A model generated the notes under the pieces. It was not told the DNA's origin. It saw only the letters and a program-made list of their open reading frames with translations, and ran no database searches. Below are positions 455 through 55,800 of a stretch of 64,000 nt of DNA, one piece after another (the first letter of the stretch is position 1; every line of letters starts with the position of its first letter). The stretch is from Gammaproteobacteria bacterium (GTDB lineage: Bacteria > Pseudomonadota > Gammaproteobacteria > CAKMZV01), in assembly GCA_965219665.1 (NCBI GenBank), contig CBDCOD010000017.1, positions 6,069 through 70,068 on the forward strand, written 5' to 3'. Made by a program: the position numbers and the translations under genes.

Positions 455-1007
455 TATGCACCCATATTTTTACATACGCGCCATGCTTGGTGGGTATCGT
501 CTGCGCTTGGTTGAGTGCAATACGTTCCAAACTGGTGTTGTGGTAGCGTACTTGATAAAAGGTTTCAATTACCCCAGTCTGCTTATTACGAATGCGCACT
601 TGCGCCCCTTTTTCGCCATTTAAGGAGCAGTAGCGTCCGCCAAGCACTTCCCATTGTCCCATATCAAGTACCTGACTCATAGGCAACAACTTGAATGGTA
701 ATTTACTGAAGAAGGTTTGTAGATTCTCATCATTTGCCGACTGAATTTCTAACGCTTTTGCCTTAATATGATTGCTCACCGTCTCCGATGCTAATGAATA
801 CACGCTCACTGGCTGCACTATATTAAATGTACTGACGAACAGCCACGCAGACAGCATCAACAAGATAGATGCGGCTGCTCCAATAAATAGCGGCTTTCGT
901 GAAGCAAAAAAACTTCTCTTCTGTTTGCTTTGCAGTAATACCAACTGCGCATCACTCAACTGCCTATCACTATAACGCTCCCTAATCAGATCACCTAATT
1001 TATTCAT
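402..1007 (-). CDS. Putative membrane-anchored anti-sigma factor (single-pass)
   Basis: ATGA start/stop overlap with the ECF sigma gene (1004-1007). About 38-aa cytoplasmic N-terminus, one hydrophobic helix (PLFIGAAASILLMLSAWLFVSTF), about 135-aa periplasmic domain with a single Cys. The call rests on position and topology only; there is no HxxxCxxC zinc motif. Confidence 0.5.
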   Translation of the reverse strand: MNKLGDLIRERYSDRQLSDAQLVLLQSKQKRSFFASRKPLFIGAAASILLMLSAWLFVSTFNIVQPVSVYSLASETVSNHIKAKALEIQSANDENLQTFFSKLPFKLLPMSQVLDMGQWEVLGGRYCSLNGEKGAQVRIRNKQTGVIETFYQVRYHNTSLERIALNQAQTIPTKHGAYVKIWVHNGILLTQTDAHASSIFY

Positions 1008-1525
1008 TTCAAATACCTACTCAATTCATCTGATCGAATCGCTATCATTTTCTTTCTCAAACGTGCCACTCGAGAAAGCAGTGTCCCTTTAGCGATTTGT
1101 AACTCCTCAGCAATTTGCTCATAGGACATTGCATCAATTGCCAACATACTCAAAATCCCTTTATCCAACAACTCTAATTGATCCCACCAATACTCCAACT
1201 CATCACTTACCACCAACTCATCTAAAAAATTTTGCTCACATTCCACCAATGCTAAGGTCTCATCATCAACCAGTATAGGCTGCACCTTACGAAAGGTGTC
1301 GATTGCTCTATGCCGAATGACCGTCCTAATATAACTCATGCGACACGCACTGTTTCGTGGCGGCTTGCGAACACAAATTTCTAAAGCTGTTTGCAATAAA
1401 TCAAAAGCATCAATCTCCTGCTTGCTATAGTGTAAACAATAGCGATACAGGGTATGCAATTCACGCTCGCTATACACTAATACGCCTTGCTCTTTAAACC
1501 CATTAACCAACGCTTGCTTAACCAT
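1004..1525 (-). CDS. ECF-type RNA polymerase sigma-70 family factor
   Basis: 173 aa. Region 2-like segment DLLQTALEICVRK...YIRTVIRHRAIDTFRK and region 4 HTH MSYEQIAEELQIAKGTLLSRVARLRKKM. ATG at 1525. Confidence 0.85.
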   Translation of the reverse strand: MVKQALVNGFKEQGVLVYSERELHTLYRYCLHYSKQEIDAFDLLQTALEICVRKPPRNSACRMSYIRTVIRHRAIDTFRKVQPILVDDETLALVECEQNFLDELVVSDELEYWWDQLELLDKGILSMLAIDAMSYEQIAEELQIAKGTLLSRVARLRKKMIAIRSDELSRYLK

Positions 1526-2259
1526 GCTTGCAAATACTCAAGCGACACAATACCATCACGCAGCAGTTGCTCTAGACTATGCGCGTAACTACGTGCCTGT
1601 ACAGTGCGTAATATTTTTGCCTCTACGGCATCCATATTATCAATACACGCATTAAAACCTTGTGTGTAAACCACCATCCAACCACGCCTTAACGTTTGGT
1701 CTATTTGAGCATACGGATGATGCTGCTCCAATAATTGGGCATGATGTGCTGAATGGATATAGCACACAGTCAAGCTGGGCATGAAATCCAAAAATAAAGC
1801 ATCTAATGGCTGCGACTCAATTAAACTCTGCCAGTGTTCAGCGGAAACGGGTGCTGGTTGCTGCGCGTAATAGTTCAACTCCAATGCTTGCTCACAGTGC
1901 GCCAAGGAGCGTAACCCATGTATTTTTGACTCAGGGTACTGTACAAACAACTGCAAAAACCGCTCACCATATTGTGCTAAGTCAATATGCACCGAATCGG
2001 TGTGTAAAAAATAGTAGCGCGCCATACCAACTAAGGTGTCACCGAGTAGTTGCTGTAGGCAGGGGAAACGTCCTAAAAGAGCATCTATATGCGCATTTTG
2101 AACGGTTTGTTGATAAATACGATGTCGCGCATTCTCTCGTGAGGGCGCGTCTAAAGCTTGAACGATATTATCTGTTGACGCCTGTTGACGCCAAATCATA
2201 TTGATAAAATCGCTCTGTAACTGTTTAAGCGACTTTGGAGGTGATAATTTCTCTCGCAT
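1477..2259 (-). CDS. bufC: DUF2063 family protein, BufC-like partner of the MNIO enzyme
   Basis: Sits immediately after the DUF692 gene. The N-terminal SLKQLQSDFINMIW resembles the conserved DUF2063 start. I chose the ATG at 2259 (GAGG 6 nt upstream) rather than the ORF-track start at 2301. Overlaps bufB by 35 nt. Confidence 0.75.
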   Translation of the reverse strand: MREKLSPPKSLKQLQSDFINMIWRQQASTDNIVQALDAPSRENARHRIYQQTVQNAHIDALLGRFPCLQQLLGDTLVGMARYYFLHTDSVHIDLAQYGERFLQLFVQYPESKIHGLRSLAHCEQALELNYYAQQPAPVSAEHWQSLIESQPLDALFLDFMPSLTVCYIHSAHHAQLLEQHHPYAQIDQTLRRGWMVVYTQGFNACIDNMDAVEAKILRTVQARSYAHSLEQLLRDGIVSLEYLQAWLSKRWLMGLKSKAY

Positions 2260-3052
2260 GGTCTGCCTCATCCAGAATAACTGATAGCGGTGGAATGTCA
2301 TTATCCCATTCGATCAGCGTAGGAATTGACCCCGCCTGCTGTATGAATTGTCCATATAGTGACCACACCTGAGGATGTACGGGATTATTATGCGCGTCAA
2401 TAACATAATCGCCACAATCTTCAAAGCCTGCCAAATGAATTTCAGCTACCCGAGAGGCATCAATATCGCGTAAATATTGGTCAAAATCGGTTCCATTATT
2501 GCGATATGCCACATAGATGTTATTGATATCAAAAAGAATCTTACAATCTGCCTCTTGAGCAACCATAGAAACAAACTCGCCTTCACGCAAAGTAGAGTCT
2601 TTGAAATTCAAATACGTGGATACATTTTCTATAGCAAAGGGCACTTCCAAATAGTCTTGAACCAATCGGATGCGCTGTGCAACATACTGCGCTGTTTCTT
2701 CTGTGTAGGGCAAGGGCAATAAGTCATGTGATTGGAGACCATGTACTGCGCACCAGCACAGATGATCAGACATAAGCCACGGATTAGTAGCGCGCGCCAA
2801 TGTTTTAAGTGCCTTCAAGTAATCTGCATTCAAGGGGTCAGCACTGCCTATGGATAAGCCAACCGAATGCAATGATACGGGATACAACTCGGCAATAGCC
2901 TCTGCTTCCTTGAAACTTCTAGTATTCTCCTGTAGATGATTATCTGCCAATAATTCCATCCAAGCAAGTGGCGGCTGCTCCTCCACAATTTGCCGAAAAT
3001 GGTTGGAGCGCATGCCAATACCAATCTGCGCTATTTCTGGATTACTAAACAT
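2225..3052 (-). CDS. bufB: DUF692 family multinuclear non-heme iron oxidase (MNIO), BufB/MbnB-like
   Basis: IGIGMRSNHF...WMELLADNHL...HSVGLSIGS...EIHLAGF...TLIEWDNDIP is the TIM-barrel DUF692 pattern. Start set at ATG 3052 (MFSNPEIAQIGIGMR), because the track's TTG start at 3115 reads through a 28-bp perfect palindrome. Confidence 0.85.
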   Translation of the reverse strand: MFSNPEIAQIGIGMRSNHFRQIVEEQPPLAWMELLADNHLQENTRSFKEAEAIAELYPVSLHSVGLSIGSADPLNADYLKALKTLARATNPWLMSDHLCWCAVHGLQSHDLLPLPYTEETAQYVAQRIRLVQDYLEVPFAIENVSTYLNFKDSTLREGEFVSMVAQEADCKILFDINNIYVAYRNNGTDFDQYLRDIDASRVAEIHLAGFEDCGDYVIDAHNNPVHPQVWSLYGQFIQQAGSIPTLIEWDNDIPPLSVILDEADHAREIITSKVA

Positions 3053-3083
3053 GCTATATGCATTAAAGGCTATATAAGAATAA

Positions 3084-3111
3084 CCTACTGCATGCGTACG
3101 CATGCAGTAGG
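3084..3111 (-). terminator. Intercistronic hairpin / candidate attenuator between bufA and bufB
   Basis: Perfect 28-bp palindrome CCTACTGCATGCGT|ACGCATGCAGTAGG, giving about a 12-bp stem with a GUAC loop. It begins 18 nt after the bufA stop codon. In the mRNA sense it is followed by UUAUUCUUAUAU. Confidence 0.5.
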
Positions 3112-3129
3112 TCAAGCGTGAAGTATAAA

Positions 3130-10529: not shown

Positions 10530-11318
10530 CTATTTTTTAGGAACGGCAACCACCCTAAACCCATCTACACTAAATCCGCGATTGGGAAGGTTTGCCGCAC
10601 GATGCGCAAACCGCATGAAATGCTCAGGACAATGATGCGACCCACCTCGGCGCACTCGGGTTGTGCCATCCGCAGGTCCTTGGGGATTATGTGTTGTAAA
10701 ACGATCTGCATACGTATTACCGCTATACCAATCATCGACCCACTCCCACACGTTGCCCATCATATCGTACAACCCAAAAGCATTAGGTTTACGTGTTCCT
10801 ACTGGATGCGTGATATCGTCGGAATTGATAATAAACCACGCATAATCCTCTACCTCATCAGGGCGCATCCCCTGATCCCCTGCACGGGCTGCATACTCCC
10901 ACTCTGCTTCAGTAGGTAAGCGATAATCATACTGCTTATCTAACGCACTCAATTCCTGAGTGAAACGCTGTGCCATAAACCAGTTAATACCATTTACTGG
11001 CAAATTCTCCCAGTTATCGCGCTGCCAAGTATTACCGGGACGATTCTCCATCACCTCAAGCCACTGCTTCTGAGTAACCTCAGTTTGACCCATTAAAAAA
11101 GCATCAATACGCACCTTATGATACGGTGTCTCATCTACCACATCCGTCTCCTTAGGACTAGGAAACTCAGATAAGGCATCCTCCACATCCTCCGTACCCA
11201 TAAAAAAAGAACCACTCGGCACTTCAACAAAACGCATACCCAAAACATTAGTCACTTCCGCACGAACAGTACACACCAAAAGCACAGCAAATAGCGTTCC
11301 ACATAATAATTTATACAT
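10530..11318 (-). CDS. Secreted formylglycine-generating enzyme (FGE/SUMF1) family protein
   Basis: Signal peptide MYKLLCGTLFAVLLVCTVRA from the ATG at 11318 (the track start at 11372 is an extension). Motifs LPTEAEWEYAARAG, NAFGLYDMMGNVWEWVDDWY and RVRRGGS. Confidence 0.8.
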   Translation of the reverse strand: MYKLLCGTLFAVLLVCTVRAEVTNVLGMRFVEVPSGSFFMGTEDVEDALSEFPSPKETDVVDETPYHKVRIDAFLMGQTEVTQKQWLEVMENRPGNTWQRDNWENLPVNGINWFMAQRFTQELSALDKQYDYRLPTEAEWEYAARAGDQGMRPDEVEDYAWFIINSDDITHPVGTRKPNAFGLYDMMGNVWEWVDDWYSGNTYADRFTTHNPQGPADGTTRVRRGGSHHCPEHFMRFAHRAANLPNRGFSVDGFRVVAVPKK

Positions 11319-19545: not shown

Positions 19546-19909
19546 AAAAGCGAGCCGATCTATAAGCCGGGTTCTGTCATGAGCAGTCATTCATCTTGGC
19601 AAGCGTGTCACCACGCTGCTCTGCGCGAACTACCCGAAAGTCATGCGGGCAACATGTTGTATCCGAAGACACGTACTTTCCTATTTGTCTTGCTCCAGAT
19701 GGGGTTTACCCTGCCACTGCTGTTACCAGCAGAGCGGTGCGCTCTTACCGCACCATTTCACCCTTACCATTCACTACCTAAATAAGCTATGGCGGTATAT
19801 TTTCTGTGGCACTTTCCATCAGCTCACACTGTCCAGAAGTTATCTGGCATCTTGCCCTATGGAGCCCGGACTTTCCTCTGCGTACAGCGACTGCTTAACC
19901 GACTCGCCT
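19546..19909 (-). ncRNA. rnpB: RNase P RNA, bacterial type A
   Basis: The reverse complement contains GAGGAAAGUCCGGGCUCCAUAGGGCA, GGUAAGGGUGAAAUGGUGCGGUAAGAGCGCACC, GGUAAACCCCA and ACAGAACCCGGCUUAU, near-identical to the E. coli M1 RNA conserved regions. The 5' GCGAGUCGGUU pairs with the 3' GAUCGGCUCGC (P1). A T-run follows the 3' end. Ends are accurate to about +/-4 nt. Confidence 0.95.
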
Positions 19910-19913
19910 CACC

Positions 19914-19942
19914 ATTATAAAGGCAATGACTGGGAGGCTGAA
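19914..19942 (-). promoter_or_regulatory. Candidate sigma-70 promoter of rnpB
   Basis: Perfect TATAAT (19919 to 19914, minus sense) 6-7 nt upstream of the predicted mature 5' end. Weak -35 TTCAGC at a 17-bp spacing. Confidence 0.45.
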
Positions 19943-19993
19943 TCTTTACCGAGCATGCAAATGAGTTGCGTTCATCCTACCAATGGTGCTAAA

Positions 19994-20466
19994 ATGAAAC
20001 AACTTGTGAACGAATTTTATGGTAACTGGACACTATGTGTGCGCCCACAAAAACAGCAACACTGCTTAAAAGTGCTATCCTTTGCCAGCACAGGACTACT
20101 TGCAAATAATCTGATTACAGTTGATTCCGACCCCAATTTACACACTGTCGTCGTTGCTGGATCGCAGCAAAACCTTGGAGAAACAGTCGCTCCCTCCTCA
20201 ATAATCCAAAGCATCTTTAGTTACCCCTTTGACAATGTCCTAAGCTATCGCATCACCACAGGCAACAATCTATTTGCCATAGATCGCACCAGGCACCCAC
20301 TACTACCCCACCTGCTACTAACGGTGGCGGTAGTGGTGGCGGCAGCCGTCGCCGCAGCGGCGGCAGTGGTGGCTGTAGTCTGCACCATACGGCAACAACC
20401 GATTGGGTGCTCTGGCTACTCGTGCTGCTTAGTGTCGTTGCCTTACGCCGACGACGCTACAGTTAG
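19994..20466 (+). pseudogene. Frameshifted small ORF: cadherin-like module, Pro/Thr-Gly/Ser linker and GGC-type C-terminal sorting tail
   Basis: Frame 2 from ATG 19994 reads MKQLVNEF...NVLSYRITTGNNLFAIDRT. Near 20290-20310 the sense continues only in frame 1: APTTTPPATNGGGSGGGSRRRSGGSGGCSLHHTATTDWVLWLLVLLSVVALRRRRYS, then stop at 20464-20466. A strong terminator follows. The frame 1 segment has no start codon of its own (stop at 20230-20232). No Sec signal peptide is evident. Confidence 0.5.
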
Positions 20467-20551
20467 CGTTACTTGCCGCCACGAGCGTACAACAATCTGT
20501 GCAGTCCACCACCAGTACCACTGGTTAAAAAACCTGCTTAAAAACCTTGTT

Positions 20552-20584
20552 ACACTGCCCCCAGAGGGCAGTGTTTGTTTTTTT
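20552..20584 (+). terminator. Rho-independent terminator
   Basis: 9-bp GC-rich stem ACACTGCCC / GGGCAGTGT, 5-nt loop, then TTGTTTTTTT. It lies 85 nt after the sorting-tail stop codon and 27 nt before the glcB ATG. Confidence 0.75.
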
Positions 20585-20610
20585 ACTGTTTATATTGAAA
20601 TTGTAATACT

Positions 20611-22788
20611 ATGAAAAATTCTGCTGTTCAAATCGCTAATGTATCCGTTTGCCAATCATTATTTGAGTTTATCAACAATGAGGCATTACCCAATACGGGC
20701 ATTGAGAGTGCCCATTTTTGGGAACAGTTGAGCGTAATTGCCACTGATCTCCTCCCTGAAAATCGAGCGTTACTTGCTAAGCGCAACGCCTTACAGCAAC
20801 AAATAGATGCGTGGTATCAACAAGGAGGCACAGACCCTGTAGCGCATAAGGAATTTTTACAGTCTATTGGCTATTTGAGCGTAGAGCAAGAGGATGATTT
20901 TTGTGTAGATACAGCGCATGTGGATTATGAGATAACCGATATTGCAGCTCCCCAATTGGTCGTTCCGGTCAATAATGCACGCTATGCCCTGAATGCAACC
21001 AATGCGCGCTGGGGCTCTTTATATGATGCTCTGTATGGTACCGATGTTATTGATGAGCACGATGGTAAAGAGAAAGGGAGTGCATTCAATCCTAAACGGG
21101 GGCATGCTGTTACCGAGTATGTGATGCGCCTGTTGATAGAATGGCTCCCTTTGCAGCATGGTACGCTGGCAGATGCTACTGCTTTTTATGTACACAATGG
21201 TGCGCTGCATATTACTGTAAATGGCAAAATAACGCAGTTGCACGATGATGCTGTGTGGGTAGGCTATCAAGGGAAGGCTGATAGTCCATCAGCATTGCTT
21301 TTTAAGCATCATAACTTGCATATTGAGCTGCTGTTTGATAAGAGCCACCCTGTAGGAAAAAGGAGTCCTTGTGGGCTAAAAGATGTTGTATTAGAGTCCG
21401 CTGTTACGACTATTCAGGATTGTGAGGATTCTGTTGCTGCGGTAGATGCAGAGGATAAAGTGCTTGTATATCGAAATTGGTTAGGGCTTATGCTAGGTAC
21501 CTTAAGCGAGACAGTGCATAAGAATGGTATACCAGTTGAGCGTACCCTCAATCCGAATAAGGCATATAGTGCACCTGATGGCTCACTATTTGAGCTAAGC
21601 GCGCGCTCCTTACTTTTGTGCCGTAATGTGGGGCATTTAATGACTAATCCTGCTATTATCATGGCAGATGGGTCCGAAATACCCGAGGGGATTATGGATT
21701 GTATGGTGACTGCATTATGCGCCTTACATGATTTAACGAATAGACGAGTTAATTCACAAGCGGGCAGTATGTATATTGTTAAACCCAAGATGCATGGACC
21801 TGAGGAGGTGGCTTTTGCTGTCAAATTGTTTGGGCGTGTTGAGCGCGCTTTGGGACTGGCAGAGAATACGCTCAAAATCGGCATTATGGATGAAGAACGC
21901 CGCACAAGCATTAACCTCAGGGCCTGCATTCGTGCAGCAAAATCGCGCATTGTATTCATCAATACAGGGTTTTTAGATCGTACCGGAGATGAGCTACATA
22001 CTGCCATGTATGCAGGCGCTATGCTGCCTAAAGGCGATATGAAAGCAGCTACATGGTTGCAGGCATACGAGAAAGCAAATGTTATTGTTGGCTTACAGTG
22101 TGGCTTGCCCGGACATGCACAAATAGGCAAGGGTATGTGGGCAATGCCTGATGAAATGGCGCGTATGATGCATGATAAAGTCGGACACCCCGCATCAGGA
22201 GCTAATACCGCGTGGGTCCCTTCTCCTACAGCAGCCACCTTACATGCTATTCACTATCATCAGGTGGATGTGCTTGCCGTTCAGCAACAGTTAATGCAGG
22301 AGTGCTTAACATACCCTTTGGATGCGCTTTTGACGATACCTATTTTGAATACTGTGCCCAGTTCTGAGGCTATAGCGCAAGAGTTAGATAGCAATTGTCA
22401 GAGCATATTGGGCTATGTAGTACGCTGGATTGATCAGGGCATTGGATGCTCTAAAGTGCCAGATATTAACCATGTGGGCTTGATGGAGGATCGTGCTACC
22501 TTACGTATTTCTTCACAGCTACTTGCAAACTGGCTGCTGCACGGCTTGATTACTAAGGAGCAAGTTAGCAATGCTATGCAGCGCATGGCAGCGGTAGTAG
22601 ATGCACAAAATGCACATGATGCTGCCTATACGCCAATGGCTCCTGAATGTGATGGTCTAGCGTTTACTGCAGCTTGTACATTGGTGTTTAATGGCGCTAC
22701 AGTGGAAAACGGCTATACAGAGCCTGCTTTACATCATTTTCGCTTGCTGAAAAAAACGGAAAATACATCTGCCTCAACAGCAGAGTAG
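20611..22788 (+). CDS. glcB: Malate synthase G
   Basis: 725 aa, collinear with E. coli GlcB features: N-terminal F.NNEALPNTGIESAHFW, then IVKPKMHGPEEV, GIMDEERRT and NTGFLDRTGDE. Confidence 0.95.
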   Translation: MKNSAVQIANVSVCQSLFEFINNEALPNTGIESAHFWEQLSVIATDLLPENRALLAKRNALQQQIDAWYQQGGTDPVAHKEFLQSIGYLSVEQEDDFCVDTAHVDYEITDIAAPQLVVPVNNARYALNATNARWGSLYDALYGTDVIDEHDGKEKGSAFNPKRGHAVTEYVMRLLIEWLPLQHGTLADATAFYVHNGALHITVNGKITQLHDDAVWVGYQGKADSPSALLFKHHNLHIELLFDKSHPVGKRSPCGLKDVVLESAVTTIQDCEDSVAAVDAEDKVLVYRNWLGLMLGTLSETVHKNGIPVERTLNPNKAYSAPDGSLFELSARSLLLCRNVGHLMTNPAIIMADGSEIPEGIMDCMVTALCALHDLTNRRVNSQAGSMYIVKPKMHGPEEVAFAVKLFGRVERALGLAENTLKIGIMDEERRTSINLRACIRAAKSRIVFINTGFLDRTGDELHTAMYAGAMLPKGDMKAATWLQAYEKANVIVGLQCGLPGHAQIGKGMWAMPDEMARMMHDKVGHPASGANTAWVPSPTAATLHAIHYHQVDVLAVQQQLMQECLTYPLDALLTIPILNTVPSSEAIAQELDSNCQSILGYVVRWIDQGIGCSKVPDINHVGLMEDRATLRISSQLLANWLLHGLITKEQVSNAMQRMAAVVDAQNAHDAAYTPMAPECDGLAFTAACTLVFNGATVENGYTEPALHHFRLLKKTENTSASTAE

Positions 22789-22820: not shown

Positions 22821-25800
22821 TTAGATTTGAGTCTTTCTACTCATCTTCACAGTAGATAGATGATAGCGGCGGCGAGAAAGTAGTATTTTAAGCAGTGCGA
22901 GCAAGCAGAGCAGCAGTAAAGATGGGTCATAATCGCTGTCCAATATCAAGGCACAGCCACCACTTTCTTCACTTGAACGACTGTCTAAAACAATAAAGAC
23001 GTCTGTGTTTGCAACACCTACTAAGGAGAGAACATTGCCATTTAATCCCTTAGCTCTATCGTACGATCCAGCATTATAAGCGTCACTATCATTGATACCG
23101 CCATCTGTAATGCGAACAAGAATACACCGATTACCGCTGGTTAGTCCAGAAGAGTACAGTCCACTATCTGCCTCAGGGCAACTGCCATTGGCTAAGAGTG
23201 GTGCGCTGGATGTGGCATCACCTTGACTGGTGTCAAAATCGCGCCAACCTATTCCCAGTAGATACGTTCTTAACACTAAGGAGCCATTGGGTAGCTGGCT
23301 AGGTAAGCGAATTGTGGCTAACGCAATGCTACCAACATGACGAAGGCCTGCCATTTCCATGTCAATTAAACCTGTTCTATATTCAAATACGGGGTCTGCT
23401 ACATAGCCTGTTCCTCTACCTAAGCCGTTTAGGCTCTCAATGCTTTCTTCTGTTAGCACCAGCCCTGTAGAGAGTGCCATAGAGCGCGCAAAATAACCAG
23501 AGCGCGCAACGTTCTGTGACTCACTTAGTCTGTACGATGCGCTCTCAGTCCATATGATACGACGAATACTGGTACTCTCTTGTATTTCATCAGGCAGGCC
23601 GTCTTGCTCTGAGTCAATCAGTTGACTCACCTCTATTTGATTTGGCAGCACAGTCAATACCAGACTACCTCTGGACGCGGCAGTGATACCCTGAGCACTT
23701 CTACGGTGCACACTCACTGTAACTTCATATACACCCTCTGCAAGATTGCCAGGATTAAATATTATGCGCTGGCAAGATCCATGACCAGAACTCAGTAGGC
23801 CACCATGGCTTTCATGATGCGAGAGACAGAGTGCACTACCTGTTATGCGAGATACTATTTCTGTGGTTCCTATGGACCAGTCCAAGAAGGTCTGCGCTGA
23901 CTGCCAGCCACCTAAGCGGGCGGTTATCGTAACCGTTCCACCACCTGCTCTTATGGCTCGAACCTTGCCATTGCCGTTGCCTTCTTGGAATAGTTCTAAC
24001 CAGACTACTGGTTGGTTGTGGATTTGTGGATTTGTGCCGTCTAAAATTTCTTGCCCATCTCCGACACCATCGCCGTCTAAGTCACTATTAAACTGCGCAT
24101 TCACCACCCCTAAGCCCTGCAAATAGAATTCTACAGCGTTGCTTAAACCGTCGGTATCACTGTCTGCTGCACCGTTACTTATAGGGCTATTTGCATTGGT
24201 CCGAGAGTACCCTTGGCGCACTTCAATAATATCGGGCAAACCGTCACCATCTGTATCTGTTTCAGCTGTTAAGCCAGAGTTTGAGCTACAGCTGATGTTA
24301 TCAGATGGTATCGCTGGATTTGCATCCGCACAGCCAATCAGGGTCTCTATCGTATCAGGAATACGATTTCCGTTGATGTCTGTTTCAATATCTGCCTCAT
24401 GTGGATTGAGGTTGTTAGCAACTTCAAATACGTCTGGATAACCGTCAGCATCAGCATCACTTATGGCACTGACGCCCGTTATGCCAATACTGGCAAGATA
24501 GCCTTCAATCGCATTAGTAATACCGTTAGCATTACTATCACCTGCTCCATTCAAATACGGAGAGTCTGCATCGTTTATACCATTGGATAGAATATACTCT
24601 AAACCATCTGGCAGACCATCACCATCCGAGTCAAACGCTCCATCAGGAATGCCGTCATTGTTGCTATCTGCCACATTGCCAGCGCCTCGTTCTTCAAAGC
24701 GATTTTGTAGGCCATCGCCATCTGAATCCTCTACGTGATCAAAGACACTATCAAGATCTGTATCACGGTTATTTGGCGCAGTATTGAACTCCCGCAACTC
24801 TAAAATATTACTTAAACTGTCACCATCTGCATCTTCATCTGCATCGCTTAGCCCATTGTTATTTGTATCGCTTAGAGTGGCTGAGGTATTTGTTAGGTAG
24901 AATTCTTCACCGTCTGTCAGACCATCGCCATCAGTATCAGCACGATATGGATCAGTGCCTATCTGAACCTCTTCCAGATTAGTGAGCCCGTCTGAGTCAA
25001 AGTCTTCGGCACCATCATTTATACCGTCATTATCTGTGTCAGGGTCTGTGGGTAAGGCCGTAAGCGTTATGGCACGTGAGGTGGATGCAAATATATTCCA
25101 TTCAGCCCCATCGGATAGACCATCACCATCTGTGTCAGGATTTCTGGGGTTAATGCCCAAAAATAATTCAAACCCATCGGACAGACCATCATCATCTGTG
25201 TCTCCATTATGGTCTGAAATAATACCGGTTGCTGCATTGGAAGCGAGTAGGCTAAGCACGCTATCGCCTACAGCAGAAATAACGACGCTTTCTGTACTTT
25301 CGTCATTGCTATCTCCCAAAACGTCAAAACTAATGAGTGCACTACTGCTGCCTTGCTCTATGGTAGCAGAGTGTACGGTTGTGTAGTCGGCGCCCGCAGT
25401 AGCAGTTCCTGTGGTAATAATAGTGAAGTCAATTGCATTCTGAGTAAAGTTGAGGAATGGTATGGATACCTCTGCCTGTAGTGGAACGCCTTGCAGTTGT
25501 TCCTCAAACCCTGGCTCTACTCCGTGCTGAACAATAGCAACAGTAACTGGAATATGTGCTAAAGCCTCATTATCTATAATGATTACAGTCGCTGAGGATG
25601 TGAGGTTTATATCATCAATAATTGAATCAAATTCACTGGGTTGCGGTATCATACTGATTGTGGTTAATCCAACCACTACAGTCTCCCTGCCCTCTAATAG
25701 GGTATCATCTAATATTTCTATTGCGAGGCTGGCTGTGCTACGCCCATCTAAGATGTCATAACTGGCAGCGCCAGATGATGTGTTGCCAAGCACAAAATCT

Positions 25801-43800: not shown

Positions 43801-46800
43801 TCCAGAACCCGCAAAGGTGTTGACTCTGTCAGCATAATAAGATGAGCAGTATCATCATCTATACTCGTACCTGTAAATTGTGCAGTGCGGATATTTGAAC
43901 CACTATACTGAGGAGCAGTCCCAGTAGATACTAATAATACAGTGAACGTCTGTGAACCATCATCTACATCGTCATCCACTGCCTGAACAGTTATAGTTCT
44001 CGTATCTGACCACGCGCCGCTCCCAGATGCAGCAGTGTTAAAGGTTATAGAAGATACGATAAGCCGCACTTCTAATGTTTTGCCGTTACTAAAAGCGTTG
44101 TAGTGTACCGTCGTATCCAATAATATATCTACTGGCTCAAAGGGTTGCGCTTGTAAGCGCATGTGGAAACTATCCGTAGTTTCTCCATCTTCGCGTACTT
44201 GAAGTGTTGGGTTTACTATAGCAGAAACGAGAATCCCTGCTTGATCATCATCCAATATACTTACTACAGCCGTTGCTTGCTGAGTCTGTAAGCCAGACCA
44301 ATGTGCTTCTGTATTGACATCTGCCTGAGCATCTACTGAACTTAATGCTTGTATAGAAAGCTGTTGCGTCTCGTCATCATAATAATCATCTATTGCATTA
44401 ATCGTAATGACCTGAGTAGTCAACCAAGAAGTACTCGGATATGCCTCAAATACTAATACTCGTGTACTTATACTCAATAAACCACCAATATGGTCATTAT
44501 CAAAACCCGAAGAAACCGTGACCCCAAAAGTAGAAATGGATAACGTTACCGTGCTTTCAGGCTGCGCATTAAGACGCATACCTAATGCAATCATGTTGGC
44601 GGAACCTGCCGCTAACGTTTCTCCTACGGCAAAGGCGGTGCTCGTAAAGGTAATACCTGCTGTATCATCATCAATGATGGTTACTGTGAGGGTTGCTCCT
44701 AAAAAGTCAGGGCTATTAAGATAGTTTGTATCTAATGAAGCCGCACTAAATGAACCAAAGACTATCTCATCATCCTCATCGATATCATCTTGCTGAGCTA
44801 CTACCGTAAAAGTTGTCCATACATCCCATGCTACCCTTGCAAATTCAATGCTTGAACTACTAAACACCATCTCACTATTTGTCAACCCGTTGGTGGTATA
44901 AAAAGCCGTCAGTGTAAGCGTTGTCTGTGGCTGGGAACGCAAACGCACAGCTACTGTTTGCGAAGAGCCTGCTTCGCTGATGGTTACAGATGAACTGGAG
45001 AACTCAAAACCAGCCAACTCATCATCCAAAGCAGTTACTACGACGCTGTCAATATCTAAGGCAGCATGGTAACCAGAAACAGGCGCACTAGATACAGAAA
45101 TTTGCAGCGTAGTAACTTGATCCTGATCATTCAAGGAGTCATCAACTGCTTGTACGGTAACGGTTTGTGTGGCTCTATAATTTTGTGGTGTAAAGGTGAG
45201 CACTACTTGTGTTGAAAATGTATTGAATGGTACGGCACCTGTTTCTGTAGAGCGAACCCCTACCTGTAAAACCCCAAAAATTGTCGCAACATCACTCGCT
45301 TTCGTGTTATCGGTTGAGGCTACCAACAACGTGATGGTTGAGGCTGGCTGGGTATCTACGCGCAAAGCAAATGCTTCCCTTGGATTAGTGATATCTTCCG
45401 TAACGGTTAGAGTAGTTGGTACTACCGTTACTCCTGCCTCATCCTCATCCAATATTGTTACAACAACTGATGCGGTATTAGATGCACTGTAATCAGCACC
45501 CCCTCCAGCTGTCCACGTAACAGTTGTTCTCTGAGTTCCCTCTTCAATAAAATTGTCAATAGCTTGAACAACTACCTGCTGAGGAATATTCCAATTTGAA
45601 CGAGTGAATACTAACTGTCCTGTATTGGTTTTTGCTTGTTGCGATGAATTATTATCGGGGCCAATAAAAGAATGCTCCAGTGATACGCTAAGGGTTACTG
45701 TGGATGGAGAAAGCAAATTGTCCGTATCAAAAGGCTTGGAAGTAAGGACTACTGTAAATGAATCCGTAGTAGGCCTACCACCTTCTAAACCGTCTTCACT
45801 CACTGTTAGCGAACTTGGACTAACCGTTATACTTCGCTCATCTACATCAATAACATCAACCAATATTTCCCGAACACCAAAAACCGATGCGTCTGCTGCA
45901 ATGGCTTCAATGATAACTGTCTGTGTATCATCATCTTCAAAATCATGGTATGCGGTAACTGTTACAGCCTGAGAAGTGAAACGCGGAGTGAATGCAGGAA
46001 CGGTGATCGATGCAATGACTTTAAGCTCTGTGCTAGGCGCACTATGTATAGAAAGGAAGTCTATCGTAATGGCGCTTGAGGTCTTAACACTCAGTGACAG
46101 ATCAAATGTTGCCGTAGTAGGTCCTGCCAAAGCCGTTTCATAAATCATGCCCAAATTAGTAGTTGATAATGAGAAAGCTGATTCATCATCATCAACTATT
46201 TCGATCAGATGTGTTGAGGAGCGTGTATTGATACCACTCCAGAAAGCATCAATAGTAGAATCCTCAATAGTGCTTGCAGCAGCTACTACGACCGTCTGTG
46301 TGCCATCATCAAAATCATCATCTACCGCCGTAATAACTATTGACTGCAAAGTGTTCCAACTATTGCTGGGGTATGGTGAAAATACAACACTGGTGGTGCT
46401 CAATACAATAGAGCCTGTAAAGGTGGCTGGCAGAACCGTGCCTGTAGAAAAATACACAGTCACTGTCGATTCCGGTTGTGTCGCTAAACGCACGAATAAG
46501 CTGTCCGTTGTGTTGGGCTCTGTGACAACCGGATTGCCCGATAACACAATACCTGCTGTATCGTTATCAATAATGGTTACCGTTAACGTACTTGACAAAA
46601 ATTGAGGATCATCAACATAACCGGCTGCCGTTGCTGATGCAATAAAATACACATCTACTGTCTCATCATCCTCATCAATGAAATCATCAAAAGCAGTTAT
46701 CGTAACAGTAACTGGATTAAATGCACTACTATCACTAAAACGAATAGTATTCGTACTGAATGTTAATTCACGTGTCGATTGACCTGAAAGCGTAGAGGTT

Positions 46801-49800
46801 GGAGAAAGAAATACCGTCATACCACTAACTGGCTCCGCCGTTAGCACCACAGTAAATGTGCTACCACTGCCCCCTTCTGTTACAGAGGCAGTAGAGCGAC
46901 TAAGACTATAGCCAGGACTCTCATCATCAATTACCTCAACAATAACATCTGATAAAGTCGTAGCAGCACTGTAACCAGAGTCCCCATTAACAACTGTCAG
47001 CGTCAGCGTCACAAAAACACCATCATCATTTGCCTGATCATCTATTGCCTCAACTGAGACCGTAATAGGCGTGTTCCAAGTCGCAGAAGTGAAACTCAAT
47101 AATATACTACTCTGACTATTCGTGCTTTGACCACTTAACTCTAACTGCGCAAGCCCTTGAACCTGTGTAGAAGCAACCGATAGCGTAACCGTAGATAATG
47201 GCTGCGTCTGTGGGCGAATCTCAAAAGTAGCCGACCTACTACTACCTGCCTCTTCTGTGATAATCAGCGATGTTGGAACAACTACAAAGCCTGCAACATC
47301 ATCATCTGTAACGGTGACCGTCAGTGTAACATTCTCACTTGAACCATAATCACCCCCACTGGCTGCTAAGCTAAAGGTGCTATACTGTGTATTATCAACT
47401 ACCTCATCATCATAGGCAGAGACCGTTACCGTAATAGAAGTACTCCAATTAGAAGTAGTAAAAACTATTCGAGCTGTAGATAAAGAGGACTGTATCGGAA
47501 TAACGCCTGATGTAAATGTATGCGCACTACTAACCTCAAGCGTAACATCTCCACCATATGGACGCGTAGCCAAACGAACCTCAGCAGTAGAAACCGACCC
47601 CCCTTCCGTAACCGTATGCTCCGTAGGCGCAATCTGTACCCCACGTACATCATCATCAATGGTCTCAAACCCACGTGCAGTGGGCGATAGCCCACTATAT
47701 AAAGCATCGGATGAAGCAACCGATAGCGTAACTGTCGCATTGCGGGTATCATCATCAAAATCATCATCTACTACCGTAATCGTAACACTCTGGAGCGTTT
47801 GCCAACTGTTAGCAGTAGCCGTAAAAGTCAATGAATCAACACTTAACGTTGCCTCTGGATCAGAGGATAAACTATCATCACTTAACAATACATTAACCGT
47901 AACCGTACTGAAGGGGCGCGTTGCTAAGCGAACCGTAAAGGTGGCTTGTGTCGCACTTGACTCATATAGGGTATCTGTACTTAACGCACTAACGACCAAA
48001 GCACTTTCATCATCATCTACTACCAATACCCCATGCGTAGAACTTACGCTATTTGCACCAGCCCAATGAGAAATCGTATTCAAGTCCGCATTAGCAACAA
48101 CTGCAGAGTCCGCCGTAACAACTACTGTCTGTGTGCCATCATCAAAATTATCATCTACCGCCGTAACAACTATTGACTGCAAAGTGTTCCAACTATTGCT
48201 GGGGTATGGTGAAAATACAACACTGGTGGTACTCAATATAATAGAGCCACCAACTGCAATTGAGCCCGTACTAAAACTTAACACCACTGTACTCTCAGGC
48301 TGCGCCGATAGCCGAACTAATAAACTATCTGTCGTATTAGGCTCCGTTACAACTGGACTTCCTGATAACTCAATACCTGCTGTATCATTGTCTACAACCG
48401 TTACCGTCAGAGTATCCCCTGAAAAATCCGCATTGCTTGCATAAGCACCATTGATGTTGTCCGTAGCAATCAAGAAAACTTGTATACTTTCATCATCCTC
48501 ATCAATGTCATCATTCACCGCTGTAACCGTTATCGAAACAGGCGTGCGAGCATTTGCACTGCTGAAAACAATAGTATTCGTACTGAATGTCAATTCACGT
48601 GTCGATTGACCTGAAAGCGTGGCTGATGGCGATAACGCAACCGTAGCACTACCCGGAGGATCCGCCGTTAGCACCACAGTAAAAATGCTACCAACGCCCC
48701 CTTCTGTTACAGAGGCAGTAGAGCGACTAAAACTATAGCCAGGCCTCTCATCATCAATTACCTCAACAATAACATCTGATAAAGTCGTAGCAGCACTGTA
48801 ACCAGAGTCCCCATTAACAACTGTCAGCGTCAGCGTCACAAAAACACCATCATCATTTGCCTGATCATCTATTGCCTCAACTGAGACCGTAATAGGCGTG
48901 TTCCAAGTCGCAGAAGTGAAACTCAATAATATACTACTCTGACTATTCGTGCTTTGACCACTTAACTCTAACTGCGCAAGCCCTTGAACCTGTGTAGAAG
49001 CAACCGATAGCGTAACCGTAGATAATGGCTGCGTCTGTGGGCGAATCTCAAAAGTAGCCGACCTACTACTACCTGCCTCTTCTGCGATAATCAGCGATGT
49101 TGGAACAACTACAAAGCCTGCAACATCATCATCTGTAACGGTGACCGTCAGTGTAACATTCTCACTTGAACCATAATCACCCCCACTGGCTGCTAAGCTA
49201 AAGGTGCTATACTGTGTATTATCAACTACCTCATCATCATAGGCAGAGACCGTTACCGTAATAGAAGTACTCCAATTAGAAGTAGTAAAAACTATTCGAG
49301 CTGTAGATAAAGAGGACTGTATCGGAATAACGCCTGATGTAAATGTATGCGCACTACTAACCTCAAGCGTAACATCTCCACCATATGGACGCGTAGCCAA
49401 ACGAACCTCAGCAGTAGAAACCGACCCCCCTTCCGTAACCGTATGCTCCGTAGGCGCAATCTGTACCCCACGTACATCATCATCAATGGTCTCAAACCCA
49501 CGTGCAGTGGGCGATAGCCCACTATATAAAGCATCGGATGAAGCAACCGATAGCGTAACTGTCGCATTGCGGGTATCATCATCAAAATCATCATCTACTA
49601 CCGTAATCGTAACACTCTGGAGCGTTTGCCAGCTGTTAACAGTAGCCGTAAAAGTCAATGAATCAACACTTAACGTTGCCTCTGGATCAGAGGATAAACT
49701 ATCATCACTTAACAATACATTAACCGTAACCGTACTGAAGGGGCGCGTTGCTAAGCGAACCGTAAAGGTGGCTTGTGTCGCACTTGACTCATATAGGGTA

Positions 49801-52800
49801 TCTGTACTTAACGCACTAACGACCAAAGCACTTTCATCATCATCTACTACCAATACCCCATGCGTAGAACTTACGCTATTTGCACCAGCCCAATGAGAAA
49901 TCGTATTCAAGTCCGCATTAGCAACAACTGCAGAGTCCGCCGTAACAACTACTGTCTGTGTGCCATCATCAAAATTATCATCTACCGCCGTAACAACTAT
50001 TGACTGCAAAGTGTTCCAACTATTGCTGGGGTATGGTGAAAATACAACACTGGTGGTACTCAATATAATAGAGCCACCAACTGCAATTGAGCCCGTACTA
50101 AAACTTAACACCACTGTACTCTCAGGCTGCGCCGATAGCCGAACTAATAAACTATCTGTCGTATTAGGCTCCGTTACAACTGGACTTCCTGATAACTCAA
50201 TACCTGCTGTATCATTGTCTACAACCGTTACCGTCAGAGTATCCCCTGAAAAATCCGCATTGCTTGCATAAGCACCATTGATGTTGTCCGTAGCAATCAA
50301 GAAAACTTGTATACTTTCATCATCCTCATCAATGTCATCATTCACCGCTGTAACCGTTATCGAAACAGGCGTGCGAGCATTTGCACTGCTGAAAACAATA
50401 GTATTCGTACTGAATGTCAATTCACGTGTCGATTGACCTGAAAGCGTGGCTGATGGCGATAACGCAACCGTAGCACTACCCGGAGGATCCGCCGTTAGCA
50501 CCACAGTAAAAATGCTACCAACGCCCCCTTCTGTTACAGAGGCAGTAGAGCGACTAAAACTATAGCCAGGCCTCTCATCATCAATTACCTCAACAATAAC
50601 ATCTGATAAAGTCGTAGCAGCACTGTAACCAGAGTCCCCATTAACAACTGTCAGCGTCAGCGTCACAAAAACACCATCATCATTTGCCTGATCATCTATT
50701 GCCTCAACTGAGACCGTAATAGGCGTGTTCCAAGTCGCAGAAGTGAAACTCAATAATATACTACTCTGACTATTCGTGCTTTGACCACTTAACTCTAACT
50801 GCGCAAGCCCTTGAACCTGTGTAGAAGCAACCGATAGCGTAACCGTAGATAATGGCTGCGTCTGTGGGCGAATCTCAAAAGTAGCCGACCTACTACTACC
50901 TGCCTCTTCTGCGATAATCAGCGATGTTGGAACAACTACAAAGCCTGCAACATCATCATCTGTAACGGTGACCGTCAGTGTAACATTCTCACTTGAACCA
51001 TAATCACCCCCACTGGCTGCTAAGCTAAAGGTGCTATACTGTGTATTATCAACTACCTCATCATCATAGGCAGAGACCGTTACCGTAATAGAAGTACTCC
51101 AATTAGAAGTAGTAAAAACTATTCGAGCTGTAGATAAAGAGGACTGTATCGGAATAACGCCTGATGTAAATGTATGCGCACTACTAACCTCAAGCGTAAC
51201 ATCTCCACCATATGGACGCGTAGCCAAACGAACCTCAGCAGTAGAAACCGACCCCCCTTCCGTAACCGTATGCTCCGTAGGCGCAATCTGTACCCCACGT
51301 ACATCATCATCAATGGTCTCAAACCCACGTGCAGTGGGCGATAGCCCACTATATAAAGCATCGGATGAAGCAACCGATAGCGTAACTGTCGCATTGCGGG
51401 TATCATCATCAAAATCATCATCTACTACCGTAATCGTAACACTCTGGAGCGTTTGCCAGCTGTTAACAGTAGCCGTAAAAGTCAATGAATCAACACTTAA
51501 CGTTGCCTCTGGATCAGAGGATAAACTATCATCACTTAACAATACATTAACCGTAACCGTACTGAAGGGGCGCGTTGCTAAGCGAACCGTAAAGGTGGCT
51601 TGTGTCGCACTTGACTCATATAGGGTATCTGTACTTAACGCACTAACGACCAAAGCACTTTCATCATCATCTACTACCAATACCCCATGCGTAGAACTTA
51701 CGCTATTTGCACCAGCCCAATGAGAAATCGTATTCAAGTCCGCATTAGCAACAACTGCAGAGTCCGCCGTAACAACTACTGTCTGTGTGCCATCATCAAA
51801 ATTATCATCTACCGCCGTAACAACTATTGACTGCAAAGTGTTCCAACTATTGCTGGGGTATGGTGAAAATACAACACTGGTGGTACTCAATATAATAGAG
51901 CCACCAACTGCAATTGAGCCCGTACTAAAACTTAACACCACTGTACTCTCAGGCTGCGCCGATAGCCGAACTAATAAACTATCTGTCGTATTAGGCTCCG
52001 TTACAACTGGACTTCCTGATAACTCAATACCTGCTGTATCATTGTCTACAACCGTTACCGTCAGAGTATCCCCTGAAAAATCCGCATTGCTTGCATAAGC
52101 ACCATTGATGTTGTCCGTAGCAATCAAGAAAACTTGTATACTTTCATCATCCTCATCAATGTCATCATTCACCGCTGTAACCGTTATCGAAACAGGCGTG
52201 CGAGCATTTGCACTGCTGAAAACAATAGTATTCGTACTGAATGTCAATTCACGTGTCGATTGACCTGAAAGCGTGGCTGATGGCGATAACGCAACCGTAG
52301 CACTACCCGGAGGATCCGCCGTTAGCACCACAGTAAAAATGCTACCAACGCCCCCTTCTGTTACAGAGGCAGTAGAGCGACTAAAACTATAGCCAGGCCT
52401 CTCATCATCAATTACCTCAACAATAACATCTGATAAAGTCGTAGCAGCACTGTAACCAGAGTCCCCATTAACAACTGTCAGCGTCAGCGTCACAAAAACA
52501 CCATCATCATTTGCCTGATCATCTATTGCCTCAACTGAGACCGTAATAGACGTGTTCCAAGTCACAGAAGTGAAACTCAATAATATACTACTCTGACTAT
52601 TCGTGCTTTGACCACTTAACTCTACCTGCGCAAGCCCTTGAACCTGTGTAGAAGCAACCGATAGCGTAACCGTAGATAATGGCTGCGTCTGTGGGCGAAT
52701 CTCAAAAGTAGCCGACCTACTACTACCTGCCTCTTCTGTGATAATCAGCGATGTTGGAACAACTACAAAGCCTGCAACATCATCATCTGTAACGGTGACC

Positions 52801-55800
52801 GTCAGTGTAACATTCTCACTTGAACCATAGTCACCCCCACTGGCTGCTAAGCTAAATTTGCTATACTGTGTATTATCAGCCACCTCATCATCATAGGCAG
52901 AGACCGTTACCGTAATAGAAGTACTCCAATTAGAAGTAGTAAAAACTATTCGAGCTGTAGATAAAGAGGACTGTATCGGAATAACGCCTGATGTAAATGT
53001 ATGCGCACTACTAACCTCAAGCGTAACATCTCCACCATATGGACGCGTAGCCAAACGAACCTCAGCAGTAGAAACCGACCCCCCTTCCGTAACCGTATGC
53101 TCCGCAGGCGCAATCTGTACCCCACGTACATCATCATCAATGGTCTCAAACCCACGTGCAGTGGGCGATAGCCCACTATATAAAGCATCGGATGAAGCAA
53201 CCGATAGCGTGACTGTCGCATTGCGGGTATCATCATCAAAATCATCATCTACTACCGTAATCGTAACACTCTGGAGCGTTTGCCAGCTGTTAACAGTAGC
53301 CGTAAAAGTCAATGAATCAACACTTAACGTTGCCTCTGGATCAGAGGATAAACTATCATCACTTAACAATACATTAACCGTAACCGTACTGAAGGGGCGC
53401 GTTGCTAAGCGAACCGTAAAGGTGGCTTGTGTCGCACTTGACTCATATAGGGTATCTGTACTTAACGCACTAACGACCAAAGCACTTTCATCATCATCTA
53501 CTACCAATACCCCATGCGTAGAACTTACGCTATTTGCACCAGCCCAATGAGAAATCGTATTCAAGTCCGCATTAGCAACAACTGTAGAGTCCGCCGTAAC
53601 AACTACTGTCTGTGTGCCATCATCAAAATTATCATCTACCGCCGTAACAACTATTGACTGCAAAGTGTTCCAACTATTGCTGGGGTATGGTGAAAATACA
53701 ACACTGGTGGTACTCAATATAATAGAGCCACCAACTGCAATTGAGCCCGTACTAAAACTTAACACCACTGTACTCTCAGGCTGCGCCGATAGCCGAACTA
53801 ATAAACTATCTGTCGTATTAGGCTCCGTTACAACTGGACTTCCTGATAACTCAATACCTGCTGTATCATTGTCTACAACCGTTACCGTCAGAGTATCCCC
53901 TGAAAAATCCGCATTGCTTGCATAAGCACCATTGATGCTGTCCGTGGCAATCAAGAAAACTTGTATACTTTCATCATCCTCATCAATGTCATCATTCACC
54001 GCTGTAACCGTTATCGAAACAGGCGTGCGAGCATTTGCACTGCTGAAAACAATAGTATTCGTACTGAATGTCAATTCACGTGTCGATTGACCTGAAAGCG
54101 TGGCTGATGGCGATAACGCAACCGTAGCACTACCCGGAGGATCCGCCGTTAGCACCACAGTAAAAATGCTACCAACACCCCCTTCTGTTACAGAGGCAGT
54201 AGAGCGACTAAAACTATAGCCAGGCCTCTCATCATCAATTACCTCAACAATAACATCTGATAAAGTCGTAGCAGCACTGTAACCAGAGTCCCCATTAACA
54301 ACTGTCAGCGTCAGCGTCACAAAAACACCTTCATCATTTGCCTGATCATCTATTGCCTCAACTGAGACCGTAATAGGCGTGTTCCAAGTCGCAGAAGTGA
54401 AACTCAATAATATACTACTCTGACTATTCGTGCTTTGACCACTTAACTCTAACTGCGCAAGCCCTTGAACCTGTGTAGAAGCAACCGATAGCGTAACCGT
54501 AGATAATGGCTGCGTCTGTGGGCGAATCTCAAAAGTAGCCGACCTACTACTACCTGCCTCTTCTGTGATAATCAGCGATGTTGGAACAACTACAAAGCCT
54601 GCAACATCATCATCTGTAACGGTGACCGTCAGTGTAACATTCTCACTTGAACCATAATCACCCCCACTGGCTGCTAAGCTAAAGGTGCTATACTGTGTAT
54701 TATCAACTACCTCATCATCATAGGCAGAGACCGTTACCGTAATAGAAGTACTCCAATTAGAAGTAGTAAAAACTATTCGAGCTGTAGATAAAGAGGACTG
54801 TATCGGAATAACGCCTGATGTAAATGTATGCGCACTACTAACCTCAAGCGTAACATCTCCACCATATGGACGCGTAGCCAAACGAACCTCAGCAGTAGAA
54901 ACCGACCCCCCTTCCGTAACCGTATGCTCCGTAGGCGCAATCTGTACCCCACGTACATCATCATCAATGGTCTCAAACCCACGTGCAGTGGGCGATAGCC
55001 CACTATATAAAGCATCGGATGAAGCAACCGATAGCGTAACTGTCGCATTGCGGGTATCATCATCAAAATCATCATCTACTACCGTAATCGTAACACTCTG
55101 GAGCGTTTGCCAGCTGTTAACAGTAGCCGTAAAAGTCAATGAATCAACACTTAACGTTGCCTCTGGATCAGAGGATAAACTATCATCACTTAACAATACA
55201 TTAACCGTAACCGTACTGAAGGGGCGCGTTGCTAAGCGAACCGTAAAGGTGGCTTGTGTCGCACTTGACTCATATAGGGTATCTGTACTTAACGCACTAA
55301 CGACCAAAGCACTTTCATCATCATCTACTACCAATACCCCATGCGTAGAACTTACGCTATTTGCACCAGCCCAATGAGAAATCGTATTCAAGTCCGCATT
55401 AGCAACAACTGTAGAGTCCGCCGTAACAACTACTGTCTGTGTGCCATCATCAAAATTATCATCTACCGCCGTAACAACTATTGACTGCAAAGTGTTCCAA
55501 CTATTGCTGGGGTATGGTGAAAATACAACACTGGTGGTACTCAATATAATAGAGCCACCAACTGCAATTGAGCCCGTACTAAAACTTAACACCACTGTAC
55601 TCTCAGGCTGCGCCGATAGCCGAACTAATAAACTATCTGTCGTATTAGGCTCCGTTACAACTGGACTTCCTGATAACTCAATACCTGCTGTATCATTGTC
55701 TACAACCGTTACCGTCAGAGTATCCCCTGAAAAATCCGCATTGCTTGCATAAGCACCATTGATGCTGTCCGTAGCAATCAAGAAAACTTGTATACTTTCA

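Follow-up and report, generated by a model that had tools for sequence, protein, structure and literature searches.

The stretch of DNA analysed here, referred to as the window, comprises 64,000 nucleotides of contig CBDCOD010000017.1 from a Gammaproteobacteria bacterium (GenBank assembly GCA_965219665.1), and the subject of this analysis is a short, frame-disrupted element at positions 20035-20466, very probably the relic of a giant surface-adhesin gene, which carries a C-terminal sorting domain of the JDVT-CTERM type. The relic is housed in a gap of 700 bp between rnpB and glcB. The left edge of the locus is formed by rnpB, the gene for the class A RNase P RNA, which lies on the minus strand at 19547-19906, divergent from the relic, and matches Rfam model RF00010 over its full length (302 bits; gathering score 100). 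On the right follows glcB, encoding malate synthase G (20611-22788, plus strand; NF002825, 1122 bits), and beyond it, on the minus strand, lies a giant open reading frame (ORF) of 13,714 amino acids (22821-63965) that is still open at the window edge. The relic and the giant gene both point toward glcB from either side, which bears out the inverted bracketing of glcB that was described in the original prediction, a note made from the sequence alone.

The gap contains two overlapping reading frames. Frame 2, read from the ATG at 19994, encodes MKQLVNEF...NVLSYRITTGNNLFAIDRT, and frame 1 then encodes ...APTTTPPATNGGGSGGGSRRRSGGSGGCSLHHTATTDWVLWLLVLLSVVALRRRRYS up to the TAG at 20464-20466, after which a hairpin resembling an intrinsic terminator and followed by a T-run is found on the plus strand at 20552-20584. 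In a scan, this element showed a 9-bp stem with six GC pairs, a 5-nt loop and the tail TTGTTTTTTT; the hairpin proper occupies 20552-20574, and glcB starts 27 bp past the terminator. The frame-2 head, the frame-1 tail with its stop and the terminator were all recovered as originally described, and the addition of one base indeed yields a fusion of 157 amino acids. The frame-1 tail has no start of its own, the earliest in-frame start being a GTG about 20 codons before the stop. Frame 2 is open from 19643 to 20614 (323 amino acids, or 206 from the ATG at 19994), running antisense to rnpB and extending 4 bp into glcB. This 323-residue ORF is spurious, an artefact of composition, and upstream of about 19907 it has to be so because rnpB occupies the opposite strand. 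The first 27 codons of the head (MKQLVNEFYGNWTLCVRPQKQQHCLKV) are likewise not native coding sequence, since the native start, ATG 20035, lies in frame 1 and a loss of 14 bp, described below, separates the two frames. The 157-residue fusion would therefore start from a spurious ATG, with no signal peptide. A Pfam scan of the fusion gave no match, nor did a search with it as protein query against 5.8 billion proteins at E <= 0.01.

The origin of the relic is revealed by a sister strain, in which the same locus holds an intact gene. The sister allele resides on a contig of 51.8 kb from the European Nucleotide Archive (ENA; ERZ25072490:ctg192942), reached through a 98% identical glcB homolog (P0001), which led to locus L081 with the 3' part of the gene, and through a cluster member (P0241) of a TauE-like neighbour, which led to locus L082 with the 5' part, covering the first 9.4 kb of the gene. 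Look-ups of exact protein sequences (glcB, the TauE-like protein, GluQRS, P0121 and P0242) had found no record. In the flanks, comprising the TauE-like gene, rnpB, glcB and the 3' end of the giant gene, identity to the window amounts to 98.1-99.4%; the closest glcB among GTDB species genomes is 61% identical and shows no synteny. Between rnpB and glcB the sister strain carries a gene of 22,335 bp encoding 7,444 amino acids, which starts 148 bp from rnpB and ends 146 bp before glcB. It begins with MRAPTKSTILLKSAILALLSFASTGLLANN at the ATG homologous to window position 20035, and its product reads MRAPTKSTILLKSAILALLSFASTGLLANNLITVDPDPNLH...NVLSYRITTGNTLFAINRTNGAITLTAA at the N-terminus and ...YERITISVTEAPTEPPPTTPPATGDGGGGGGGGCSLHHTATTDWVLWLLVLLSVVALRRRRYS before the stop, the last 32 residues being identical to the tail in the window. 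The protein has a Sec signal peptide at its N-terminus, followed by Cadherin, Cadherin_4, Big_9, NHL, TEN_NHL and tandem-95 domains and by JDVT-CTERM. The region of about 145 bp before glcB is 94% identical between window and sister, and the terminator is identical in L081; the hairpin at 20552-20584 formerly served the adhesin gene. Comparison of the locus in related strains, proposed in the original prediction as a check, thus returned an intact 7,444-residue gene that shares its head and its tail with the relic. On the other side of the relic, alignment to L082 identifies 19907-20034 (plus strand) as the former 5' region of the adhesin gene with promoter and leader. This spacer is about 84% identical to L082 (reverse complement) 11171-11298 in a gapped alignment, compared with 98-99% for the flanking genes, and a 21-bp indel separates window and ENA strain directly after rnpB.

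Aligned to the intact gene, the relic is the product of two lesions. The larger one is a deletion of 21,901 bp, measured on the ENA allele, with its junction at 20291 on the plus strand, where the left homology (to L082) ends and the right homology (to L081) begins. On its left side the sequence is ...CGCACC(A)ATGGC..., on its right side ...GTAACTG(A)GGCACC..., and the shared A in parentheses is the sole microhomology (1 nt). The shift from frame 2 to frame 1 arises because 21,901 equals 3n+1, so that codon position 1 is joined to position 2 and the tail stands one base out of phase, a shift that a single added base would repair. The original prediction had placed the frame change near 20290-20310 and the base to be added in a run of four cytosines (C4) at 20306-20309. 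This has to be corrected: the change falls exactly at 20291, on the deletion junction. To the left of the junction, 20075-20291 (plus strand) retains, in frame 2, the remaining part of the signal peptide together with the beginning of the first cadherin-like domain (LSFASTGLLANNLITVDS...NVLSYRITTGNNLFAIDRT), colinear with codons 19-90; taken as a whole, the remnants in the window are colinear with codons 1-91 and with the last ~59 codons of the 7,444-residue gene. The locus therefore combines a syntenic intact ortholog, colinear remnants, defined breakpoints and loss of frame, by which a pseudogene is recognized. The 30-mers that flank the breakpoints in the long form are absent from the entire window, and scans of JGI (Joint Genome Institute) metagenomes with the deletion junction and with the conserved tail gave 0 matches.

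The smaller lesion affects the signal peptide. The alignment to the sister shows that 20035-20074 on the plus strand preserves, in frame 1, the native ATG and 13 initial codons of the signal peptide (MCAPTKTATLLKS), but after 20074 the window lacks 14 bp (CTATCCTTGCACTA). The lost segment, CTATCCTTGCACT(A/C), lies between 8-bp direct repeats CTATCCTT. When the 14 bp are restored, the sequence reads MCAPTKTATLLKSAILALLSFASTGLLANN..., with the hydrophobic core of a typical Sec leader; the maximum Kyte-Doolittle mean over 12 residues is 2.03 for the restored sequence versus 0.31 for the reading from ATG 19994. Without the 14 bp, the start codon and the body stand in different frames, and no in-frame Sec signal peptide exists in the window. 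The lack of such a signal had been taken to favour a relic. This was correct, although the reason is less direct: a leader is in fact encoded and has been broken by the 14-bp deletion.

The C-terminal remnant (20292-20466, plus strand), delimited by NCBIfam models and the sister alignment, consists of a Thr/Pro and Gly/Ser linker, the sorting domain and the stop codon. The domain itself, GGSGGC-SLHHTATTDW-VLWLLVLLSVVAL-RRRRY at ~20359-20460 on the plus strand, belongs to JDVT-CTERM (NF033191): the 57-residue tail of the relic, aligned to positions 1-34 of the 35 in the model, attains 38.5 bits with a cutoff of 27, compared with 35.4 bits for the 157-residue fusion and 32.8 bits for the intact sister protein. 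The tail also reaches 26 bits on the MYXO-CTERM model TIGR03901 (cutoff 20). It is tripartite, with a Cys motif (GGSGGC), a hydrophobic, Leu-rich transmembrane helix (SLHHTATTDWVLWLLVLLSVVAL) and an Arg cluster (RRRRYS and stop). A single Cys is present in the tails of both the relic and the long allele, and the relic has D at +9 after the Cys and W instead of P at +10 (DW). The original prediction had made a match to models of C-terminal sorting domains its test, and had noticed a parallel between this tail and that of the giant protein. Both hold, the latter at borderline strength. The giant ORF ends in ...SGGCALILDSDYDPSLLLLCLLALLKILLSRRRYHLSTVKMSRKTQI and contains, at 22866-22964 on the minus strand, the JDVT-CTERM-like tail SGGC-ALILDSDYDP-SLLLLCLLALLKILLS-RRRY, which scores on NF033191 28.1 bits alone and 24.3 bits in a context of 199 residues. 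It has DP at +9/+10 after the Cys and a second Cys within the helix. A further 13 residues (HLSTVKMSRKTQI) follow RRRY in the giant protein (22821-22964, minus strand), and the tail is therefore not at the extreme C-terminus.

The Gly/Ser linker at 20310-20370 is hypervariable among strains, reading NGGGSGGGSRRRSGGSGG in the window and GDGGGGGGG in the ENA strain; in two of the public sequencing runs considered below (X3 and X4) it has an in-frame deletion of 18 bp at 20339, and in two others (X1 and X2) a cluster of single-nucleotide polymorphisms (SNPs) and indels at 20343-20359.

The relation between the lost gene and its giant neighbour is one of shared domain families. The modules of the long-allele protein are 26-43% identical to those of the giant protein, and its residues 59-230 match residues 27-211 of the giant ORF, numbered from the window edge, with E = 7.6e-12. 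The likeness between NVLSYRITTG in the relic and AVLSYGMTGDG in the giant ORF, which had been noticed from the sequence, is therefore homology at the level of the domain family. The latter motif had been located near the N-terminal end of the giant ORF, which can be said only of the window edge, beyond which the ORF continues. BLAST comparison of relic head and tail with the giant protein gave only marginal matches (E = 0.049 for the head and 0.001 for the tail), and at the nucleotide level the two genes show no similarity within the window. The term 'mini-paralog' used in the original prediction is accordingly apt for the shared repeat-domain families but has no counterpart at the DNA level. 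A recent duplication of the neighbouring giant gene, considered as a source of the relic, is ruled out by these comparisons. The string GGTGGCTGT, with which both coding tails were said to begin, is present twice, at 20368-20376 (plus) and 22953-22961 (minus), but two copies were also found in 14 of 100 shuffles, and its recurrence therefore reflects only the Gly-Gly-Cys codons and not DNA homology.

The distribution of the two alleles was followed by aligning contigs of public sequencing runs on window positions 19900-20650. X3 and X4 stem from one sample (depth ~156-355), and X5 and X6 carry a second host label; overall, X1-X6 and X10 are labelled with two organisms (A and B), a Hi-C project included. 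The glcB gene is closest to gamma- and alphaproteobacterial sequences, and the bacterium is probably a host-associated proteobacterium. The long form is evident on the left side from contigs of X1 (in part), X3, X4, X5 and X6, which follow the window as far as 20288 and then read on into TCAATGGCGCAATCACCTTAACCGCTGCAC, translated in frame 2 as ...AIDR-INGAITLTAA, a normal cadherin-like continuation. On the right side, contigs of X1, X2, X3 and X4 join the window at 20291 coming from ...CTTACGAGCGTATAATCATCTCTGTAACTG, in frame 1 YERIIISVTE-APTTTPP.... The deletion form is represented in X1 by a contig of 138 bp (20252-20389) that spans the junction as it stands in the window and differs from the window by three SNPs. 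The depths in this run are 4.4 for the deletion branch and 3.7 for the long branch on the left, where the shared flank has 8.4, and 4.4 and 2.3 on the right, where the flank has 6.3; because the branch depths balance, both alleles coexist in the X1 sample. The deletion allele is thus a real population variant, which in one public sample occurs together with the long form. Of the seven runs covering the site, six (X1, X3, X4, X5, X6 and X10) contain the 14-bp segment, as does the ENA contig, whereas the window and X2 lack it. Since X1 has it at full depth, the deletion allele of X1 has the large lesion only. A search for RNA runs found none that was usable, and run X9 contained no sequence from the region.

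These observations have to be weighed against four rival explanations. The sole serious rival is an assembly artefact, in which the organism would possess the full 22-kb gene and the assembler would have collapsed it to a false head-tail junction. Repeat-rich giant genes are prone to misassembly, X2, the run with the most window-like head, shows the long-form junction on the right and lacks the deletion junction, and among the X8 Hi-C raw reads a single read lies partly on 20291-20342 and then diverges from the window. Nevertheless, such a collapse is improbable: the X1 contig spans the same junction in separate data and with balanced branch depths, the junction is located outside repeated sequence and the flanking long-form 30-mers occur nowhere in the window, and a collapse would not produce the separate 14-bp deletion. 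A homopolymer miscall, one of the alternatives of the original prediction, by which one C would have been dropped from the C4 run and the real product would have 157 residues, is rejected. A single added base does fuse the frames, and C4 is the lone homopolymer of at least four bases in the overlap zone. However, the contigs of X1-X4 cover 20291-20342 and leave the C4 unchanged, the intact allele reads the tail in the same frame through the same run region after YERI(I/T)ISVTE, and the frame break at 20291 is the deletion junction. The fused protein would moreover have neither a signal peptide nor, as stated above, a homolog among the 5.8 billion proteins searched.

Programmed -1 ribosomal frameshifting, also proposed originally, would produce from the two segments one small protein with a JDVT-CTERM anchor, and the overlapping open frames in -1 relation with a terminator after the second are what such a gene would look like. 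Yet no X XXY YYZ heptamer is present in any frame between 20233 and 20460, the frame-2 start is spurious and a signal peptide is lacking; the supposed site is a junction absent from the intact allele, in which the two parts lie 21.9 kb apart in one continuous ORF, so that the overlap is no conserved recoding site. Recoding is thereby refuted. Hardly any more credit can be given to co-option of the relic, either as a transcript or terminator acting as regulatory leader or insulator of glcB or as a signal-less peptide with a new role. In keeping with it would be the good conservation of the 145 bp that precede glcB (94%) and of the terminator (identical hairpin), as well as the persistence of the deletion allele in at least two haplotypes, but the same terminator stands behind the intact gene and is nothing new, and a second disruptive lesion has accumulated, as in a neutral relic.

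The window segment 20035-20466 is thus very probably a non-functional pseudogene, the remnant of a second giant surface-adhesin gene. This was the favoured reading of the original prediction, and the intact sister gene, of which 21,901 bp are missing here, now lends it direct evidence. Several points nevertheless weigh against this interpretation. In the window's own genome, the deletion rests on the assembly and on one independent junction contig, that of X1. X2 agrees fully with the window in the head, the missing 14 bp included, yet this run has a long-form right junction (depth ~8) and no junction-spanning contig; with window-type head contigs at depth 2, the right-junction contig at ~8 and the glcB contig at ~6, X2 may be a mixture at very low coverage. 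The length of 7,444 residues is the gene call of the collection, the sequence having been read outside contig positions 26778-29801, the middle 3 kb. Finally, the gene tables of L081 and L082, which cover ~43 kb of the sister contig, contain no gene of the MrtJ or PF02517 type that could encode a protease for the sorting tail.

The history of the pseudogene is as follows. The intact ancestor, which sister strains still possess, is a gene of 22.3 kb between rnpB and glcB, encoding a Sec signal peptide, ~7,300 residues of cadherin-like, Big_9, tandem-95 and NHL beta-propeller modules and a JDVT-CTERM domain. In the lineage of the window, an illegitimate deletion with 1 nt of microhomology removed 21,901 bp (98% of the gene) and fused codon 91 out of frame to the last ~59 codons. 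A slippage deletion of 14 bp between the 8-bp direct repeats has in addition broken the frame of the signal peptide. Nothing like the original protein can be produced from the window, and a secreted or anchored product is impossible. The intact protein, by contrast, would be exported by the Sec pathway and retained in the inner membrane by the helix of its tail, after which it would probably be modified at the Cys, cut by a MrtJ-type Rce1-like (CPBP) intramembrane protease and moved to the surface. This route is proposed by analogy with MYXO-CTERM and its myxosortase MrtX, for which experimental proof exists.

With its out-of-frame internal deletion, minimal microhomology, later slippage deletion, intact flanks and intact relatives, the locus resembles other deletion pseudogenes and differs from them in nothing essential; of note are the loss of a 22-kb gene and the occurrence of both alleles in one sample. 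It is an ordinary deletion pseudogene, for which the intact gene, the two lesions and the allele distribution have been observed. Published JDVT-CTERM domains have one invariant Cys, a Leu-rich helix in which DP stands almost invariantly nine residues past the Cys, and an Arg cluster, and there is typically one client per genome, next to the Rce1-like CPBP protease MrtJ (NF033192) (10.1101/2023.06.07.544157). The relic agrees with this picture in its tripartite tail with a score above the cutoff, the one Cys that it shares with the long allele, the acidic residue at +9 and its origin from a member of the Pseudomonadota. It differs in having DW in place of the nearly invariant DP, which the giant neighbour does have, and in that the client in the window is a dead remnant. 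Moreover, the two JDVT-CTERM-type tails are less than 2.5 kb apart, against a published pattern of one client per proteome, and none of the window ORFs of at least 150 residues outside the giant gene matched MrtJ (NF033192, CPBP) among the NCBIfam models. In the sister strain, two giant clients flank glcB with no adjacent CPBP protease, and this arrangement departs from the published picture.

Within this class, cleavage and surface sorting have been proven experimentally only for the MYXO-CTERM system with its myxosortase MrtX (PMC11980579). This system has the same class of Cys-containing C-terminal tag, and the relic tail passes its model, but it belongs to Myxococcota, serves dozens of clients and often shows a second Cys (GCGC), and the relic fits JDVT-CTERM better (38.5 versus 26 bits). 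In its modules, the intact allele resembles the giant cadherin-like and tandem-95 proteins of Gram-negative bacteria (NF012211; Pfam Cadherin, Cadherin_4 and Big_9), which is also true of the neighbour of more than 13,714 residues. Among the giant adhesins that have been studied well, many, LapA and SiiE included, are secreted by type I systems through C-terminal signals of the RTX type and have no Sec leader. The intact allele differs from these adhesins by its Sec leader, its Cys/transmembrane/Arg tail and its blocks of NHL beta-propeller repeats.

Two further features of the window were recorded outside the relic. Within the giant ORF, self-BLAST revealed ~7 tandem repeats at 46285-58982 (minus strand), each ~1.83 kb (609 residues) long and mutually 90-98% identical; Tandem Repeats Finder, with a period limit of 500 bp, reported none in the giant gene. 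This array is likely a hotspot for changes in copy number and for assembly errors. At the far left of the window, the ORF at 2225-3115 (minus strand) scores 326.8 bits on NF050167, the model of the MNIO-family bufferin maturase BufB (cutoff 310), and is accompanied by an ORF at 1477-2301 without a family match and by an extracytoplasmic function (ECF) sigma factor at 1004-1525. To judge from these matches, 1004-3115 (minus strand) is probably a cluster for a bufferin-type ribosomally synthesized and post-translationally modified peptide (RiPP).

Gene callers may report a 'hypothetical protein' of 206-323 residues in the gap between rnpB and glcB, for which pseudogene fragment is the proper label. 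The combination of two frames and a homopolymer mimics a sequencing error or recoding, and a check in sister strains is needed before read-through is proposed. For the organism, the locus shows that a surface adhesin of 7,444 residues has been lost in a segregating variant, and the little-studied JDVT-CTERM class gains two clients of very large size, of which one carries the DW variant of the motif. Two broader readings, speculative and rather unlikely, are that presence or absence of the 22-kb adhesin is a standing polymorphism in this apparently host-associated population, and that JDVT-CTERM here is a multi-client system for giant adhesins without an adjacent MrtJ; the first is suggested by the occurrence of both alleles in one sample and of the deletion allele on two slightly different haplotypes. 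If true, a multi-client JDVT-CTERM system would depart from the published pattern of one client next to its protease, and the polymorphism could be the outcome of selection to shed or retain such a giant surface protein, for instance in interaction with a host or its immune system.

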